From: an uncultured Chitinophagaceae bacterium
Lineage (GTDB): Bacteria; Bacteroidota; Bacteroidia; Chitinophagales; Chitinophagaceae
NCBI GenBank assembly: GCA_966674115.1
Contig: CBKWHA010000002.1
Location: 5,399-69,398 of the forward strand
Direction: 5' to 3'
Length of the DNA stretch: 64,000 nt
The notes under the pieces are model-generated. The model was not told the origin of the DNA. It saw nothing but the letters and a program-made list of their open reading frames with translations, and searched no databases. Of the stretch, positions 1-61,900 are shown piece after piece. The position numbers were made by a program, and so were the translations under genes. Each line of letters opens with the position of its first letter. Position 1 is the first letter of the stretch.

Positions 1-530
1 CGGTTATACTGCTTACGGCTGTTGGGAACGAAGAAATTCAATTAGAAGGGTATGAGATCGGTATCAATGATTACATTACAAAGCCGTTTACTTTTGAGAT
101 CCTGGCGTCCAGAATAAAAAACCTGCTGGCACAACAAAAATTATTAAAGAAAAACTTCCAGAAGCAGCTAGACATAAATCCCAGTGATATAACAATAACG
201 CCTTTGGACGAACTATTTATGAAGCAGGCTTTAGCATCTGTGGAAAAAAATATAGGGAACCCGGATTATTCGGTAGAAGACCTAAGCCGTGACATGCATA
301 TGAGTCGTGTTGCTCTTTATAAAAAGATCTTAGCTCTTACCGGTAAAGCTCCTTTAGAGTTTATTCGTACTATTCGTCTGAAAAGAGGCGCACAATTGCT
401 GGAAAGAAGTGGTAAGTCAATAGCTGAGATTGCCTATGAAGTAGGATTTAATAATCCTAAAAACTTTTCCAGGTATTTTAAAGAGGAATTCAAAGTTTTA
501 CCCTCGCAGTATGTAACACAAAAAGAATAA
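1..530 (+). CDS. 3' part of a hybrid two-component protein: end of a CheY-like receiver domain followed by an AraC/XylS-type HTH domain (5' end outside the window)
   Basis: Frame 3 is open from nt 3 and in frame with the 204..530 ORF. The translation ...GYEIGINDYITKPFTFEILASRIKNLL... is a receiver C-terminus. It is followed by ...VEDLSRDMHMSRVALYKKI...IAEIAYEVGFNNPKNFSRYFKEEF, a typical AraC HTH pair. Confidence 0.8.
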   Translation, partial: VILLTAVGNEEIQLEGYEIGINDYITKPFTFEILASRIKNLLAQQKLLKKNFQKQLDINPSDITITPLDELFMKQALASVEKNIGNPDYSVEDLSRDMHMSRVALYKKILALTGKAPLEFIRTIRLKRGAQLLERSGKSIAEIAYEVGFNNPKNFSRYFKEEFKVLPSQYVTQKE

Positions 531-56964: not shown

Positions 56965-59784
56965 TTACTTCTTTTCTTTTTCATTGATTCCGGAAGTATA
57001 TTTTTCATGCAGCGCAAATAAAAATGTCATCCTGTTGGTTTCATTAGAAAAAGGCTGCAATCGGTAACATTGATCTACTGCTTTATCAAGCGTTTCATGA
57101 GCACTTAATAATTGTTGAGGCATTGATGTTGGATGGTATAAATCAGCAAGTGAAATTTTCTTTTGAACAGTTCCATCCTGTAAGTTCTGATAGTAAGACC
57201 TTGCTTTTAATACCCCCTTCGCGGCTTCTTCCACTGCTTTTACCTGCTTTTCATTGGGCGCTTTCGGCCAGGGAAAATTGTTATAATTCAAGGTGTTTGA
57301 ATAGCGGAAGTCGCTTTTAATGCGACCACAGGTATTTTTTACCCAAACAGTATGCATTTCAGAGGTCAGGATGCCAAATTCATATAAAGTTGCATCGGGA
57401 ACGGAGAAGCAGGAGTTATTCAGAATATCGTCTTGCGACATAAATCCAATGGGTATGTACTTCCTGTTTTCAGAAGAATGAGAGGGGATTAAAATATAAT
57501 TACTGGTCGGCTGACGATTTTCTGTAAATAAGGTGGGAAATTCCGCCCATTTTACGGTTGCTTGTTTTGTGCTGCTTAACCTTGTATTCCTGACCCCTTC
57601 TATTCTGGCTTGCACCAGGGGCAATTCATTGAGTTCATCCTGAGTGGCGTCAGCCAGCCAGAGACACCACCTTTTCTCGCCATTAATAAATTCATGCGCG
57701 CTGATAAATGGTTTGATAAAAGGAGCAGCACCTTTTTCCTGCTGTATAAAAACAATCTTTTCTTCGTCTGTTAAAAGAAAATACCCGCCATCTGTTGGTT
57801 GGCTTCCTTTATACATTTTAGAAACTTTACAAATCGGGTTTGGACGTGCAATGATAAACTTATCTTTTCCCTCAACAAGGTAGGGGTTTATATTTTTTGC
57901 TTCAGTCTCAAGCGCTTCACCATTTATATCTTCATAGTCAAATATCAGCTTACCAGTAACATTGAAATTGGCGAAACCTATGATCACAACGTGCACGGCT
58001 GCATTTCCCCTGGCCTCGTTGCTCCATTTGAAGGTGCGGTGCGCAAAATGTATTTTGACGGCATACTTACCATAAAGCTCATTCCATAAAATGCCTACTT
58101 GCTCGCCTTGTGCAATGGAGTTGGTACTTACAAAGGCGGTTTTGGTTTTAATGACTCCATTTAGGTTTTTTTTATGCTTGTCTGGTTGATGGTTAGAATA
58201 TTGATGCATGTATTGAGCAGCCTTGATATACCAGGCGGTAACATAGTCTAGTACACCAGCTCCATTTACATGGGCAAACACCAGTTCCATATCTTCTTTT
58301 TGGAGAACATTTTGCAATTGTTTGCCTACAAAAGGTGGGTTGCCAAAAATGAAATCGAAGCGCTCCGCTCCTTTTTCTTGCGGCCCTTTTTCGATCAGGC
58401 TTTGCCAATCAAAGCGCAGCGCATTGCCATGTTTGATGTTGGCGCTTTTGCTTAAAGGCAAACGCACGTAATAACAGCCAAAGATCTGCGAGGCCTGCAT
58501 GTTCATCTGGTGATCCATTAGCCACATGGCCACCTGGGCAATCTGACAAGGAAACTCTTCATACTCAATACCGTAATAACGGTCCACCTGGCACTTGAGC
58601 AAAACAGATATATCTATACCGGCCTCGGCTGCTACTTCCTCACGAAGCTTCATGTGGCGGAATAACAGCTCTTTTATGATTGCAATTTCTAGAAGACGCA
58701 GCTCCCGGTAGGCAATAATGAGAAAGTTGCCACACCCGCAAGCTGGATCCAAAAAGCGCAGATTACTGATCTTATTATGGAACTGCTGTAGTTTAGTCCG
58801 GCTGGTTTTTATACTTTCAAACTCTTGCCATAGCTTATCCAGGAAAAGGGGCTTAATTAGTTTCAAAATGTTTTTTTCACTCGTATAATGAGCGCCAAGA
58901 TTACGTCTTGCCTTTTCGTCCATTACACTTTGAAATAGTGATCCGAAGATCGCTGGCGAGATGCTGCCCCAATCCAAATGGCAGCACTCCATGATCAATT
59001 TCCGCACCTCGCTATCAAAATTGCAGTGCGGGAGGTTTTCCTCAAACAGCTTTCCATTGATATAGGGAAAAGATTGAACGCTTTCATCCAAAGCGCTGGA
59101 ACGTTTGTCCTTAGGGGTGTTGAGGACTTTGAATAAATGGGTAAGTTGTTGGGCAAGGTCGCTCCCATCTTCTGCTGTATGGGTCTGGATATAATCTAAA
59201 AAGATCCCTTTTTCAAAGATGTTGGTATTATCTGCAAACAATATGAATACCAGCCTGATTAAAAGAACCTCGAGTGGATGCCCTGCATAACCAATACATT
59301 TTAATTTATCATGCAAAACTCCCATCAGCTCCGCAGCCTCTATGTTTACAGGATCCAGTTCTTTGAAAGGACGTAACTGGTAACCAGCCAGAAAGTCGAA
59401 AAAATGGACGTGGTTCACAAATTCAGACAGCGGGAATTTTGTTTGGGTATCATTTTCAAGATTGTTTAGAATAAAATGTACTGAATCATTGGCTAGTGTA
59501 TACGGGGGTTTTTCTTTCCCTGGTAGCTTGGATACGAGTTCTTTACTACGCTCAAATGAATGGTTTTCATTAGTACTGGAGTTTGTCGTGTCAATAAGAA
59601 TAACACCCTTCCAGAGGAGGTTTGAGCCATATTCAAAAGATGCTATACGGCGACGGCTAATGCCAAATACATTCAGAAAATCTGTCCAGAAATGTTTACT
59701 ATTGCTTGTCTTTACTTTCTTTGCTTTCCATTCGTAAGAAAAGTCCAGGGCGCGACTTTTAATTTCACTCCAGCTAAGCGGCAT
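56965..59784 (-). CDS. MmeI-family Type IIL restriction-modification-like enzyme. The N6-adenine methyltransferase motifs are intact and the PD-(D/E)XK nuclease motif is degenerate.
   Basis: 939 aa. It has an MmeI-like N-terminus (MPLSWSEIKSRALDFS...FWTDFLNVFGISRRRIASFEY), motif I FLDPACGCGNFL and motif IV GNPPFVG, followed by a long TRD. The nuclease position reads N55-X9-D65-X-T67. Confidence 0.85.
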   Translation of the reverse strand: MPLSWSEIKSRALDFSYEWKAKKVKTSNSKHFWTDFLNVFGISRRRIASFEYGSNLLWKGVILIDTTNSSTNENHSFERSKELVSKLPGKEKPPYTLANDSVHFILNNLENDTQTKFPLSEFVNHVHFFDFLAGYQLRPFKELDPVNIEAAELMGVLHDKLKCIGYAGHPLEVLLIRLVFILFADNTNIFEKGIFLDYIQTHTAEDGSDLAQQLTHLFKVLNTPKDKRSSALDESVQSFPYINGKLFEENLPHCNFDSEVRKLIMECCHLDWGSISPAIFGSLFQSVMDEKARRNLGAHYTSEKNILKLIKPLFLDKLWQEFESIKTSRTKLQQFHNKISNLRFLDPACGCGNFLIIAYRELRLLEIAIIKELLFRHMKLREEVAAEAGIDISVLLKCQVDRYYGIEYEEFPCQIAQVAMWLMDHQMNMQASQIFGCYYVRLPLSKSANIKHGNALRFDWQSLIEKGPQEKGAERFDFIFGNPPFVGKQLQNVLQKEDMELVFAHVNGAGVLDYVTAWYIKAAQYMHQYSNHQPDKHKKNLNGVIKTKTAFVSTNSIAQGEQVGILWNELYGKYAVKIHFAHRTFKWSNEARGNAAVHVVIIGFANFNVTGKLIFDYEDINGEALETEAKNINPYLVEGKDKFIIARPNPICKVSKMYKGSQPTDGGYFLLTDEEKIVFIQQEKGAAPFIKPFISAHEFINGEKRWCLWLADATQDELNELPLVQARIEGVRNTRLSSTKQATVKWAEFPTLFTENRQPTSNYILIPSHSSENRKYIPIGFMSQDDILNNSCFSVPDATLYEFGILTSEMHTVWVKNTCGRIKSDFRYSNTLNYNNFPWPKAPNEKQVKAVEEAAKGVLKARSYYQNLQDGTVQKKISLADLYHPTSMPQQLLSAHETLDKAVDQCYRLQPFSNETNRMTFLFALHEKYTSGINEKEKK

Positions 59785-60076
59785 TAATTTCAGCGTTTGT
59801 GCGCAAAATAATTGAAATTGATTGAATCTTGGGTAACTGTAATGAGTAAGGGAAAAGCCTTATTTATTCGTAATTCAATTTATTATCTATTAAAAATTTA
59901 ACCGGTATAGTCGTTGTATTAAAAGATTTCTAATTTGAAATTAAGATGTTTTCGTATTATTTTGCTTGTAGGTAAGTGTTACACTTATTTCAATTCCCCT
60001 TAAACATATAGGAAACCGTTATATTAATAATTTTTCACAAGGCAAGTGACTAATTGCCGTTTCTGTTTGAATTGAT

Positions 60077-60799
60077 ATGAAACGTTTCTTGCTTTATACA
60101 CTGTTGTTTCTTTTGGCCCAGCCTCTTTTTGCGACGTCAATTGTTATTTTGATCACGCCGTATTATGTTGTCATGGGTACAGACAGCAGACGTACTATCC
60201 TGGATGTTAATGCGAATGTTTCAGAGAAGATTTCTGTTTGTAAGATCCACCGGGTAGGCAATTATTGCTTTGCGCTTGCCGGAATGGTGGCATCCCGTAC
60301 TTCTTTTTCAGCAGAGAAGATAATAAACAAGGAGCTCAGGAAAGCCAAAGATTACAACCGCGCTATTGCCAATATTAAAAAAGAGATCAAAAAGGCTTTG
60401 TACACCGAATTTCTATACCAAAAGCAATACCAGCCTGAATTGTATAAAAGATCCGTAGCCTCAAAACAAAACATCCTGGAAATTGCTGTATTAAGCCTTA
60501 AGGATAAAAAGCCACAGGTGCAGATCATAGGCTTCGAGTTTACAGATGAAAATGAGATCGACGTAAAAGATTATATGTCAAGCTGCCCCGGCGATTGTCC
60601 GGCACAACAGTCACAGTTCTACTTTTTAGGTGATTATTCAGGGATTGAAAGGTATTTTGATACACACCCTAAAGTTTCAGATCCTGTATCTTTTGTTGAA
60701 AAATTGATCCAAATTCAATCGCAAACTACTCCTAGCTCAGTATCTGCACCGGTTAATATTGTAAAATTCTCCTCTAACGGGGTTGAATGGATTAAATAA
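60077..60799 (+). CDS. Secreted hypothetical protein with a proteasome-beta/HslV-like Ntn-hydrolase signature (putative)
   Basis: The Sec signal MKRFLLYTLLFLLAQPLFA is followed by TSIVILITPYYVVMGTDSRRT (mature T1, D17, S18, R19), then CKIHRV...ALAG. The CDS itself is solid. The functional call rests on motifs only. Confidence 0.45.
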   Translation: MKRFLLYTLLFLLAQPLFATSIVILITPYYVVMGTDSRRTILDVNANVSEKISVCKIHRVGNYCFALAGMVASRTSFSAEKIINKELRKAKDYNRAIANIKKEIKKALYTEFLYQKQYQPELYKRSVASKQNILEIAVLSLKDKKPQVQIIGFEFTDENEIDVKDYMSSCPGDCPAQQSQFYFLGDYSGIERYFDTHPKVSDPVSFVEKLIQIQSQTTPSSVSAPVNIVKFSSNGVEWIK

Positions 60800-60808
60800 A
60801 ACTACTCA

Positions 60809-61900
60809 TCACTCCACCACTTCCGCAATTTCCTCGCTCTTCATATGCGCATTGCTCATCGAAACACTCCGGGCAACATTGCCTGCTAATTCTATGAAAG
60901 CTCGTTTGGTGATCTCCTCGTCGCTCATCAGAATGGGTACACCTATGTCACCGCCTTCACGGATACTTTGCACAAGTGGAATTTGCCCCAGGAACGGAAT
61001 GTCATATTCTTCTGCCAGGCGTTTTCCACCTTCTTTTCCAAAAATATAATACTTGTTCTCCGGCAACTCTGCTGGCGTGAAATAGCTCATATTTTCCACC
61101 AGTCCGATAATGGGTACATTCAGTTGTGCCTGTCCAAACATGGCTATACCTTTCTTGGCATCGGCAAGGGCAACATCCTGCGGAGTTGTCACCACCACTA
61201 CACCAGTAACTGGTACGGTTTGTACCAAGGTTAAATGGATATCACCTGTGCCGGGCGGCATATCAATTACCAGGTAGTCCAGTTGATCCCAGTAAACATC
61301 AGTAACAAATTGGCGGATGGCACTGCTGGCCATTGGCCCGCGCCAAACTACCGCGTTCTTTTCGTCAACCAGCAAACCAATACTCATTAGCTTCAGACCG
61401 AATCGCTCCAAAGGAACGATCATACCTTTACCTTCCACTTCTACCATCATAGGGCGTTCACCACGAACTCCAAACATAATGGGTACACTGGGACCATAAA
61501 TATCTGCATCCATTAAGCCTACTTTTGCTCCACCTTTTGATAAAGCCAAGGCCAAATTGGCAGCTACAGTGCTTTTGCCAACACCTCCTTTACCACTTAC
61601 AACGGCTATAATATTTTTAACCTTAGGCAGTACACTGCCCTTATCGCTGCGTAACGTAGTAGTGCTCGCTGTAAAATTGACAGTAACAAGCGCATTTTTA
61701 TTGAATGACTGAACAGCGTCTATACAGTTCTTTTTAATCAGCTCTTTCAGAGGGCAGGCTGGTGTGGTCAATACGATTGTGAAGGAAACATAATTACCTT
61801 CAATAGTGAGATCGCGTACCATATTGAGGGTCACGATATCTTTTCCTAGGTCTGGTTCCTGAACGGTGCTTAGTGCTTTGAGCACATCATCTTTGGTCAT
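60809..61900 (-). CDS. apbC: Mrp/NBP35 family iron-sulfur cluster carrier ATPase
   Basis: N-terminal DUF59-like domain, deviant Walker A VVSGKGGVGKST, and ...DMPPGTGD.... Confidence 0.9.
   Translation of the reverse strand: MTKDDVLKALSTVQEPDLGKDIVTLNMVRDLTIEGNYVSFTIVLTTPACPLKELIKKNCIDAVQSFNKNALVTVNFTASTTTLRSDKGSVLPKVKNIIAVVSGKGGVGKSTVAANLALALSKGGAKVGLMDADIYGPSVPIMFGVRGERPMMVEVEGKGMIVPLERFGLKLMSIGLLVDEKNAVVWRGPMASSAIRQFVTDVYWDQLDYLVIDMPPGTGDIHLTLVQTVPVTGVVVVTTPQDVALADAKKGIAMFGQAQLNVPIIGLVENMSYFTPAELPENKYYIFGKEGGKRLAEEYDIPFLGQIPLVQSIREGGDIGVPILMSDEEITKRAFIELAGNVARSVSMSNAHMKSEEIAEVVE

Follow-up and report, generated by a model that had tools for sequence, protein, structure and literature searches.

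A predicted Sec-exported proteasome-like Ntn hydrolase with its threonine at the signal junction in an uncultured Chitinophagaceae bacterium

A single gene in the genome of an uncultured Chitinophagaceae bacterium encodes a protein whose resemblance to proteasome beta subunits and HslV is far beyond chance, and in which a signal-like pre-sequence ends directly before the residue that aligns with the proteasomal nucleophile. We consider it likely, with a probability of about 0.65, that this protein is a Sec-exported, disulfide-stabilised proteasome-like Ntn hydrolase whose N-terminal threonine (Thr1 of the mature chain, Thr20 of the precursor) is freed by signal peptidase I (SPase I) after Ala19. 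To our knowledge, all characterised members of the proteasome family (20S, HslV, Anbu, BPH, and connectase) belong to an ATP-containing compartment, and the threonine of known members is exposed by autoprocessing, by removal of Met, or by removal of a presequence (mitochondrial HslV). The original prediction, made from the letters of the window (the whole 64,000-nucleotide stretch of DNA that was analysed), was aware of no described exported version whose nucleophile would be unmasked by signal peptidase, and a search of the literature for proteasome homologues that are exported or reside in the periplasm found no such description.

The gene and its family

The open reading frame at 60077..60799 of the forward strand encodes 240 amino acids followed by a stop codon and was found exactly as earlier described, with coordinates and codons that agree with the sequence (e.g., Thr20, ACG at 60134-60136; Asp36, GAC at 60182-60184). 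An in-frame TGA at 60068-60070 leaves the ATG at 60077 as the sole possible start, and the pre-sequence is therefore exactly 19 residues long. The gene is under strong purifying selection (dN/dS 0.049 against the orthologue of Paraflavisolibacter caeni), and its product is the sole match in the window to the hidden Markov model (HMM) of the family (E 5.8e-88). Scans of the window for tRNA genes and Rfam families were empty. The features of the protein are collected in Table 1.

The family comprises 1,724 clusters at 50% identity, reaches a divergence of ~22% identity, and is known from Bacteroidota and Acidobacteriota (a few named MAG proteins); when the GTDB species representatives are searched with a profile of close homologues only (A1), members are found in no more than 4 genomes. 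It forms a large branch of the proteasome-like (PF00227 / MEROPS T1-type) Ntn hydrolases for which no description has so far been found. Two members were named HslV or 20S subunits automatically by IMG pipelines.

Table 1. Features of the predicted exported hydrolase (positions in the window; mature numbering starts at Thr20).
Feature	Position	Strand	Basis
Complete CDS, predicted exported proteasome-like Ntn hydrolase	60077..60799	+	ORF; family HMM E 5.8e-88; dN/dS 0.049
Predicted Sec/SPase I signal peptide, M1-A19	60077..60133	+	Read from sequence; Ala19 invariant in close subfamily
Thr20, predicted Thr1 nucleophile	60134..60136	+	Among 234 sequences, 203 T and 23 S; aligned with the first residue of mature beta subunits and of BPH
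Asp36-Ser37 (mature Asp17-Ser18), GxDS(R/K) motif	60182..60187	+	D in 230/230 aligned; S in 225
Cys55-Lys56 (mature Cys36-Lys37)	60239..60244	+	Lys56 equivalent to Lys33, K in 232/232 aligned; C in 201/234
Cys64, clade-specific	60266..60268	+	Stands in for the C-terminal-tail Cys of the wider family
Gly69 (mature Gly50), equivalent of oxyanion Gly47, AG motif	60281..60283	+	G in 220/234; on AGF of HslV
C170-P-G-D-C174 loop, predicted local disulfide	60584..60598	+	C170 in 184, C174 in 178; gained and lost together
Gly185 (mature Gly166), strand end before helix H3	60629..60631	+	G in 219/234; by model topology at the GSG-turn position of beta subunits
C-terminal segment V222-x-x-P225...W238	60740..60790	+	V in 211, P in 223, W in 217 of 234; last two strands

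Homology to the proteasome family

As a single query against Pfam, NCBIfam, PDB sequences, and PADLOC, the window protein returns nothing useful; it has no match to Pfam PF00227 and stays below the gathering threshold of that family, so its proteasome-like membership rests on profile-sequence, profile-profile, and structural comparison. Profile A1 has no proteasome match in the PDB either, and the match emerges only with a diverse profile of 40 sequences (A2). With this profile, almost only proteasome-family chains (beta, alpha, BPH, and HslV) are retrieved from the PDB sequences (best E 4.8e-4); profile position 21, which is the Thr20 column, falls on residue 1 of mature PRE3, beta7, and BPH, and the cKI of the family aligns with the KI of the beta-subunit Lys33. 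PF00227 is matched by 23 of 40 family members at E<=1 (best E 9.1e-7), and the family has a weak match to the PHROG 'peptidase HslV family'. A profile-profile comparison with E. coli HslV (hhalign) yields a proteasome Ntn match that is significant and in the register originally proposed (probability 77%, E 2.1e-5), with Thr20 on the HslV Thr (MTTIV) and Asp36 on Asp17, the residue with which it also aligns in beta subunits. Similarity at the sequence level is detectable only across the N-terminal ~100 residues. Matches to LPD13 (E 0.0078, below the cutoff), to N-acetylneuraminate lyase, and to TPR proteins were dismissed as noise.

The structural search corroborates the proteasome Ntn fold that had been expected. 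The AlphaFold model of the mature protein (pLDDT 90.0, pTM 0.88) has the order of strands and helices expected for an alpha-beta-beta-alpha sandwich with its H1/H2 and H3/H4 pairs, from a first strand (E2-7) that begins right after Thr1 to the last two strands (E208-213 and E216-219). Foldseek with this model gives 429 matches at E<=1e-3 (best E 4.4e-8, probability 1.00); the best 50 of the 429, with TM-scores of only 0.50-0.61, belong without exception to 20S beta subunits (from eukaryotes, archaea, or M. tuberculosis) or to Anbu. An earlier model of the protein gave the same picture.

Predicted catalytic residues

Amongst 151 representatives at 50% identity, the residues at the predicted active site are T1 in 90% (with a further 5% Ser), D17 in 98%, K37 in 99%, and G50 in 95%, and the conservation foreseen for Thr20, Asp36, and Lys56 is borne out by the counts over all homologues (Table 1). 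The proposed parallel with the K33...G47 segment also stands, with Gly69 on the AGF of HslV and Lys56 placed on Lys33 by the HMMER alignments, K on K; hhalign is off by 3 residues in the loop at this point. The parallels proposed for the C-terminal half (GxDxxGPxLY and RDxxSGGxIxV) survive in part: the order of strands and helices is present in the model, but the sequence motifs are without statistical support. The C-terminal motif of the family is V-G-x-P-I-D, versus D-x-x-S-G-G, and only Gly185 (within LG) is kept at the GSG turn, where we infer from the topology of the model only that it is the counterpart of Gly128/130.

No obvious conserved counterparts of Ser129, Asp166, and Ser169 of 20S beta subunits are found in the family. 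The lack of evident counterparts would suit a catalytically inert envelope protein that uses the proteasome fold for a structural or binding role, comparable to alpha or inactive beta subunits. Inactive proteasome subunits, however, lose Thr1, Asp17, or Lys33, whereas the equivalents of exactly these residues are the most conserved positions in a family that has diverged so far, and the threonine always lies exactly at the predicted processing site. An inert protein is accordingly very improbable, and a catalytic role for Thr20 is the reading that we retain.

The predicted signal peptide and the proposed unmasking of Thr20

Signal and cleavage-site calls, for the window protein as for the family, were made by rules (a positive n-region, an h-region of 7-15 residues, a polar c-region, small residues at -1 and -3, and no lipobox Cys) together with conservation. 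The window protein has an n-region MKR, an h-region FLLYTLLFLL, and a c-region AQPLFA, with Ala at -1 and Leu at -3 relative to Thr20, in agreement with the Sec/SPase I rules and with the 19-residue signal ending in ..LFA that had been proposed. In the close subfamily, Ala19 is invariant (21/21 sequences), the residue at -3 is always A, V, I, L, or S, and Ala19/Thr20 (the slash marks the junction) is the only conserved SPase-type site, which agrees with a predicted cleavage that leaves Thr at +1. Two neighbouring sites were considered and rejected as conserved SPase sites: at Ala14/Gln15, several sequences of the close subfamily have I, V, L, or T in position 14, and Ser21/Ile22 is ruled out by family conservation. 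Over the wider family, a hydrophobic h-region is present in 210/217 pre-sequences, the residue at -1 is A (118), G (56), or S (7) in 181/217, and that at -3 is A, V, L, S, I, G, or T in 183/217.

The claim that signal peptidase unmasks the threonine fares differently across the family. An SPase-type site directly abuts Thr in 103/151 representatives (~68%), where the claim is favoured. Other representatives depart from this arrangement: 13/151 have the form AxA/Q-T, in which the signal is followed by Gln, and another 13/151 carry an h-region more than 9 residues ahead of Thr, i.e., a signal and an apparent propeptide, which ends in Gly at -1 in 10 of the 12 listed (13 in all). Gly at -1 is the context of proteasome autoprocessing, and these propeptide variants count in favour of Thr as a real nucleophile.

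Autoprocessing thus seems to be present in the family, and the window protein might likewise be exported with its threonine unmasked autocatalytically instead of by signal peptidase. This could happen in two ways. Either SPase I cuts at Ala14/Gln15 and a pGlu-Pro-Leu-Phe-Ala propeptide is then removed through an intramolecular N-O acyl shift at Thr20, as in 20S beta subunits, or the hydrophobic segment remains an uncleaved anchor until autolysis. SPase I substrates of Bacteroidetes usually expose Gln at +1 (PMC5837995, PMC10653852), and this rule leaves the Ala14/Gln15 cut conceivable in the window sequence, which reads LLA/Q (PMC5837995). Against this stand the residues at position 14 of several close members, which are unfit for -1 of an SPase site, the invariance of Ala19, the atypical nature of a 14-residue signal that lacks a c-region, the Ala at -1 of the window protein where proteasome autolysis favours Gly, and the canonical site that abuts Thr in most representatives. 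Autocatalytic unmasking of the window protein is for these reasons improbable, and cleavage by SPase I after Ala19 is preferred.

Evidence for an extracytoplasmic location

The cysteines of the family are gained and lost pairwise, and exactly 4 Cys are present in 139/221 mature chains. Two sets recur: C55, C64, C170, and C174 in 28 tail-less sequences, including the clade of the window protein, and C55, C170, C174, and a tail Cys in 130 tailed sequences. Cys55 is accordingly a predicted disulfide partner. Its pairing with Cys64 is suggested by covariation alone, the hairpin register of the model not obviously juxtaposing the two, and the confidence of the model is lowest in the block that contains the C170-C174 loop (mean pLDDT 58). 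In two members (P0045 and P0082), a C-terminal TM helix has been added and is followed by KRR/RRR. Judged from the sequences, the paired cysteines and these C-terminal membrane anchors point to an extracytoplasmic location.

The same observations bear on a reading in which the protein is a cytoplasmic protease of the HslV/Anbu kind and its hydrophobic N-terminus is a mere propeptide. A few members with short N-termini (P0208, MA/TTIIAVR; P0117, MPVRG/TS) and the two automatic names given by IMG would be compatible with such a protease. The n-h-c architecture of nearly all pre-sequences, the pairwise conservation of cysteines, the positively charged, positive-inside end of the anchors in P0045 and P0082, and the lack of adjacent HslU or Anbu-operon genes argue against it, as does the restriction of propeptides to beta subunits and HslV elsewhere in the proteasome family (PMC8665760). 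We regard a cytoplasmic location as hardly credible, and an exported protein as the probable one.

Gene neighbourhood, proposed mechanism, and function

The gene is flanked in the window by genes for an MmeI-type restriction-modification enzyme and an Mrp/NUBPL ATPase. The statement that no alpha-type or AAA+ partner is adjacent is upheld and extends beyond the window: neither an alpha-type gene nor a second gene of the family occurs in the window or at 10 related loci, and no AAA+ or hslU gene is adjacent in the window or in the neighbourhoods of other clades. The Pfam families of the Anbu operon (ATP-grasp, alpha-E, and transglutaminase-like) are absent from the neighbourhoods examined, which differ among clades and share no conserved partner gene across 6 distinct contexts. 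A DinB_2 gene recurs near three loci, two of which are syntenic with each other.

In the mechanism that we propose, the 19-residue signal peptide would carry the unfolded chain across the inner membrane, and the SPase I cut after Ala19 would at once release the protein into the periplasm and free the alpha-amino group of Thr20. The mature domain of 221 residues would then fold as the alpha-beta-beta-alpha sandwich of proteasome beta subunits, which two disulfides (Cys55-Cys64 and Cys170-Cys174) would hold in place in the clade of the window protein. The O-gamma of Thr1 would act as the nucleophile, assisted by Lys37 (equivalent to Lys33) and Asp17, with Gly50 (equivalent to Gly47) in the oxyanion hole, in the manner of 20S beta subunits and HslV. 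The enzyme would act without an ATPase or an alpha-type partner, and it would most likely cleave periplasmic peptides or unfolded proteins at peptide or amide bonds.

Alternatively, the exported fold may serve a reaction other than proteolysis, as a small-molecule amidase or acylase or as a sequence-specific transpeptidase or ligase resembling connectase. Ntn hydrolases from other families that act in the periplasm are as a rule acylases, the neighbourhood holds no gene for an unfoldase or a gating partner, and the second-shell residues of the proteasome are not conserved; in addition, the archaeal connectase is already a non-protease within the proteasome-like family (PMC8665760). The best structural and sequence matches of the protein are, however, the proteolytic beta1, beta2, and beta5 types, of which GxDS(R/K) is typical, the helical insertion between S3 and S4 of the connectase type is absent from the model, and no conserved biosynthetic or catabolic gene context suggests a small-molecule substrate. 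A non-proteolytic function is a minority possibility that deserves to be taken seriously, while hydrolysis of peptides or proteins remains the preferred assignment.

Relation to known systems

With 20S beta subunits the window protein shares the alpha-beta-beta-alpha Ntn fold and, in register, Thr1, GxDS(R/K) with Asp17, K-I with Lys33, and AG with Gly47. Identity is only 10-18%, and where a 20S beta subunit has an autoprocessed propeptide, an alpha subunit, and an AAA+ partner, the window protein has a Sec signal and neither partner, together with conserved disulfide-type cysteines. Anbu (PDB 5nyg/5nyj) scores with the top structural matches (E 5e-7 to 7e-8, TM 0.54-0.59) and is likewise a bacterial stand-alone beta-type protein without an alpha partner, but it is cytoplasmic and starts with Met-Thr. 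Its operon conserves ATP-grasp, alpha-E, and transglutaminase-like genes (PMC3235984). HslV shares the opening TTIV...GxD; it has a Met-Thr start where the window protein has its 19-residue pre-sequence, and it depends on the AAA+ partner HslU and operates where ATP is present (in the cytoplasm or the mitochondrial matrix), whereas the window protein is predicted for the ATP-free periplasm, has no HslU, and would be unmasked by signal peptidase I. In the HslV of the kinetoplastid Leishmania, an N-terminal mitochondrial targeting peptide precedes the TTI motif and is removed on import (PMC6429459), and this is the closest precedent for exposure of Thr1 through removal of a targeting peptide.

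Fuchs, Alva & Lupas (2021) described 22 novel groups of prokaryotic homologues (WPH, PHI, PMI-1..6, AAH, CPH, PPH, and others), which are also divergent, are recognised by Thr/Ser1-Asp17-Lys33-Gly47 and a predicted fold, and have no conserved partners or AAA+ genes, all of which they have in common with the present family. In the description of those groups, with one of which the family may overlap, signal peptides, secretion, membranes, and cysteines are unmentioned (PMC8665760).

Export itself has parallels elsewhere in the Ntn clan, since the periplasmic hydrolases of other families (e.g., penicillin G, cephalosporin, and AHL acylases, and gamma-glutamyltranspeptidase) share ATP-independence with the proposed enzyme. 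These proteins are Sec-exported and use an N-terminal Ser or Thr nucleophile without ATP; they belong to other Ntn families, however, are much larger, and free the nucleophile by internal alpha/beta autoproteolysis rather than at the signal junction. None of them is found among the best 50 of the 429 Foldseek matches. Gram-negative penicillin V acylases were considered as a precedent for an Ntn nucleophile unmasked by signal-peptide removal, for which the literature checked offers no support.

Implications

More than 1,700 clusters that combine a proteasome active site with a Sec signal, paired cysteines, and no partner genes would extend the proteasome family to the cell envelope, if the reading proposed here is true. 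Going further, it is a tentative and rather speculative thought that members assemble into an extracytoplasmic proteasome, i.e., a ring-forming, self-compartmentalising, ATP-independent periplasmic threonine protease of Bacteroidota, Acidobacteriota, and possibly other diderms, in which activation is hard-wired to Sec export. Such a particle would be a so far overlooked part of quality control for envelope proteins or of the processing of nutrient peptides, and it would be the first relative of the proteasome known to act outside an ATP-containing compartment. Since the amino group of the nucleophile is absent until signal peptidase cuts, no activity would be possible in the cytoplasm, and the protein would neatly exemplify a zymogen whose activation is tied to its export. 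The variants with a Gly-1 propeptide would place both routes of unmasking side by side in the same family, which would be useful for the study of how autoprocessing evolved. As a small, single-gene threonine hydrolase with predicted disulfide stabilisation, the protein should lend itself readily to expression and to probing with the proteasome inhibitors that already exist.

The predicted N-terminal threonine and proteasome homology

The ORF begins with ATG and runs for 240 codons; since an in-frame TGA lies two codons upstream, this ATG is the sole possible start and the N-terminus is unambiguous. In the window sequence the translation opens MKRFLLYTLLFLLAQPLFA-TSIVILITPYYVVMGTDSRR, in agreement with the original prediction, which had also placed the codons of Thr20 (ACG) and Asp36 (GAC) correctly. 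With 84% protein identity to its Paraflavisolibacter caeni LB-8 ortholog and a dN/dS of 0.049, the ORF is a genuine coding sequence. One close homolog (P0010, 304 aa) is annotated with a 64-residue extension before the conserved MKR start, almost certainly a mis-called start codon.

As a single query, the protein has no match in Pfam, NCBIfam or PDB sequences, and matches the PHROG 'peptidase HslV family' weakly. A first homolog search recovered 27 close relatives, every one from a Chitinophagaceae-type source, and in their alignment Ala19, Thr20, Asp36, Ser37, Arg39, Cys55 and Lys56 are invariant. The profile of this alignment, searched against 1.84 billion cluster representatives, reveals a wider family: 1,724 representatives match at E<=1e-3 and 585 at E<=1e-10, and almost every one has a length of 240-300 residues. 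In an alignment of 40 sequences that covers this range (they share 21-60% identity with the window protein), Asp36, Ser37, Lys56 and Gly185 are invariant and Thr20 is present in at least 90%. Its profile matches almost only proteasome-family chains among PDB sequences (beta and alpha subunits, BPH, HslV; best E 4.8e-4), with the Thr20 column on residue 1 of mature PRE3 (1fnt_H), beta7 (4r3o_I) and BPH (5ovu_A), and the family motif aTtIV...GaDSk in register with GTTI...GADSR. Individually, 23 of the 40 members match Pfam PF00227 'Proteasome' (best E 9.1e-7). Alignment of the family with the authentic E. coli HslV sequence (from NC_000913.3) using hhalign gives a probability of 77% (E 2.1e-5), with Thr20 aligned to the Thr of HslV and Asp36 to its Asp17. 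These profile-level matches bear out the proteasome-beta/HslV-type N-terminal signature that had been read from the sequence.

The AlphaFold2 model of the precursor is mediocre (pLDDT 75.8), its best Foldseek matches being Anbu and then 20S proteasome subunits. The mature part (Thr20-Lys240), modeled with a 57-sequence alignment, reaches pLDDT 90.0 and pTM 0.88 (all five models >88), and its predicted fold is of proteasome-beta topology: six strands, two to three long helices, four strands, two helices and two strands. Against the PDB, Foldseek returns 429 matches at E<=1e-3 (best E 4.4e-8, probability 1.00). Anbu and 20S beta subunits (eukaryotic, Thermoplasma, M. tuberculosis) account for all of the best 50, with TM-scores of 0.50-0.61; this search found no closer solved structure. 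The C-terminal motif parallels originally proposed agree in topology but lack sequence-statistical support.

Fuchs, Alva and Lupas defined the proteasome-like family by exactly Thr1, Asp17, Lys33 and Gly47 (PMC8665760). Within the 151 representatives obtained by clustering at 50% identity, the eight most conserved positions (mature numbering, Thr20 being Thr1) are Lys37 (99%; Lys33 of beta subunits), Asp17 (98%), Ser18 (97%), Gly50 (95%; Gly47), Gly166 (95%), Pro206 (95%), Trp219 (93%) and Thr1 (Thr 90%, Ser 5%), so that the proposed catalytic Thr, Asp and Lys are all retained. The 20S beta second shell (Ser129, Asp166, Ser169) has no obvious conserved counterparts among family sequences.

Predicted signal peptides and proposed exposure of the threonine

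The window protein's pre-sequence is canonical n-h-c in structure: Ala occupies -1 and Leu -3, and neither a lipobox nor a twin-arginine motif is present. Of 217 family pre-sequences (>=12 residues), 210 have a hydrophobic h-region just before Thr, 181 have A, G or S at -1, and 183 have a small or aliphatic residue at -3. A signal peptidase-type site directly abuts Thr/Ser in 103 of the 151 representatives. Another 22 are atypical or apparently truncated (10 other, five with a pre-sequence <12 residues, five without a Thr-column residue, two without an h-region).

The remaining two classes count in favor of one of the main rival explanations, in which Thr would be unmasked by autoprocessing after an upstream cut. 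In 13 representatives the site is AxA/Q-T (slashes mark junctions), where the Bacteroidetes Q-rule (PMC5837995, PMC10653852) would leave one Gln before Thr; in 13 others the h-region lies >9 residues before Thr, giving a signal and an apparent propeptide that ends in Gly-1 in 10 of the 12 listed (e.g., ...VHS/QTPTLVTG/STVV). The latter arrangement matches the classical autoprocessing context of proteasome beta subunits, so the family appears to show both unmasking routes, this one coexisting with direct exposure by signal peptidase. In several related proteins (the P0180 cluster, P0123, P0127, P0121, P0164, P0055) a Q-rule site is separated from Thr/Ser by a propeptide of 6-12 residues whose last residue is Gly-1. 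Within the window clade, however, Ala19/Thr20 is conserved and the upstream Ala14/Gln15 site is not, since several sequences have I, V, L or T at position 14. Ser21/Ile22 is likewise not a conserved site, since position 21 is most often Thr across the wider family.

Cysteines and membrane anchors

Cysteines are gained and lost in pairs across the family, and 139 of 221 mature chains contain exactly four. Cys55, Cys170, Cys174 and a C-terminal-tail Cys (W-x-x-K-x-x-C-P) occur together in 130 sequences; Cys55, Cys64, Cys170 and Cys174 in 28 tail-less sequences, including the window clade; and Cys55 with the tail Cys only in 25. None of the four core cysteines is present in 15, of which 11 also lack the tail Cys. 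For most of the family the predicted partner of Cys55 is the tail Cys; the window clade has no tail but carries Cys64, and the disulfide partner appears to have been relocated in compensation. Two relatives (P0045, P0082) are extended by a Pro/Gln-rich linker and then a C-terminal TM helix that ends in KRR/RRR, a topology expected for an outward-facing domain, which suggests membrane-tethered versions. Long, basic, Pro-rich C-terminal tails occur in several other members. Paired cysteines and membrane-anchored variants are two independent features that support a predicted extracytoplasmic location.

Genomic context and distribution

Features of the window and of related loci
Feature	Locus	Position	Strand	Remarks
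MmeI-type (Type IIG) restriction-modification enzyme	window	56965-59784	-	full-length, 939 aa; immediately upstream, divergent
In-frame TGA	window	60068-60070
Proteasome-like gene	window	60077-60799	+
Thr20 codon	window	60134-60136
Asp36 codon	window	60182-60184
Cys64 codon	window	60266-60268
Mrp/NUBPL Fe-S ATPase	window	60809-61900	-	convergent with proteasome-like gene
CarboxypepD_reg-like protein	window			neighbor
GFO/IDH/MocA oxidoreductase	window			neighbor
DinB_2/MST-family gene	L001 (P. caeni)	1-102
DinB_2/MST-family gene	L004	8817-9341
DinB_2/MST-family gene	L006	1205-1729

No alpha-type or AAA+ partner gene is encoded near the family gene in the window, as originally noted, or in related loci; no other partner is encoded nearby either, and each locus has only one family member. 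The stop codons of the proteasome-like and Mrp/NUBPL genes are 9 bp apart, leaving no room for separate intrinsic terminators. The MmeI-family enzyme has all five domains (N, helicase spacer, MTase, TRD, C), and a homologous gene holds the syntenic position in P. caeni. Neighborhood conservation extends to the syntenic P. caeni locus but not to distant homologs, which have entirely different neighbors (GH127 and a two-component system; malic enzyme and YitT; AAA_15; DinB). Three loci of different clades have a DinB_2/MST-family gene 0.1-6 kb from the proteasome-like gene; two of them, L004 and L006, share synteny, so the recurrence may be coincidence.

Members with names derive from isolates and MAGs of Chitinophagaceae (Paraflavisolibacter, Paracnuella) and from Acidobacteriota MAGs (Ca. 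Sulfotelmatobacter, Ca. Acidiferrales); the rest are mostly unnamed metagenomic proteins. IMG pipelines auto-named two of the family 'HslVU peptidase subunit' and '20S proteasome, alpha and beta subunits', so the likeness is occasionally caught automatically, without curation.

Proposed mechanism and known systems

Penicillin acylases, AHL acylases and GGT are exported periplasmic Ntn hydrolases whose nucleophile is exposed by internal autoproteolysis. Literature searches found no exported or periplasmic proteasome homologs. The 2021 census of proteasome homologs, which describes 22 new groups, contains no mention of signal peptides, secretion, membranes or cysteines, and confines propeptides to beta subunits and HslV (PMC8665760). 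Conceptually, the closest precedent found is the mitochondrial HslV of kinetoplastids, in which a targeting peptide precedes the TTI motif and is removed on import (PMC6429459); this enzyme, however, remains in a compartment that contains ATP, with HslU as its partner.

Homology, fold, register, residue conservation and export-type features support the original interpretation overall, and the window protein is filed here as a putative exported proteasome-like Ntn hydrolase activated via its signal peptide. Most likely, Sec export would be followed by signal peptidase I cleavage at the predicted Ala19/Thr20 site, creating the Thr1 alpha-amine, and then by oxidative folding of the mature protein; in the periplasm, Thr would finally act as the nucleophile that hydrolyzes peptide or amide bonds, independently of ATP. 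For this last step the main rival is that the target chemistry is that of a small-molecule amide or a ligase, not proteolysis.

A few called proteins have no signal peptide (P0208 and P0215, MA/TTIIAVR; P0117, MPVRG/TS; P0222, MTG/ST), either because the gene calls are truncated or because these relatives are truly cytoplasmic. In the latter case they might represent the state from which the exported family arose.
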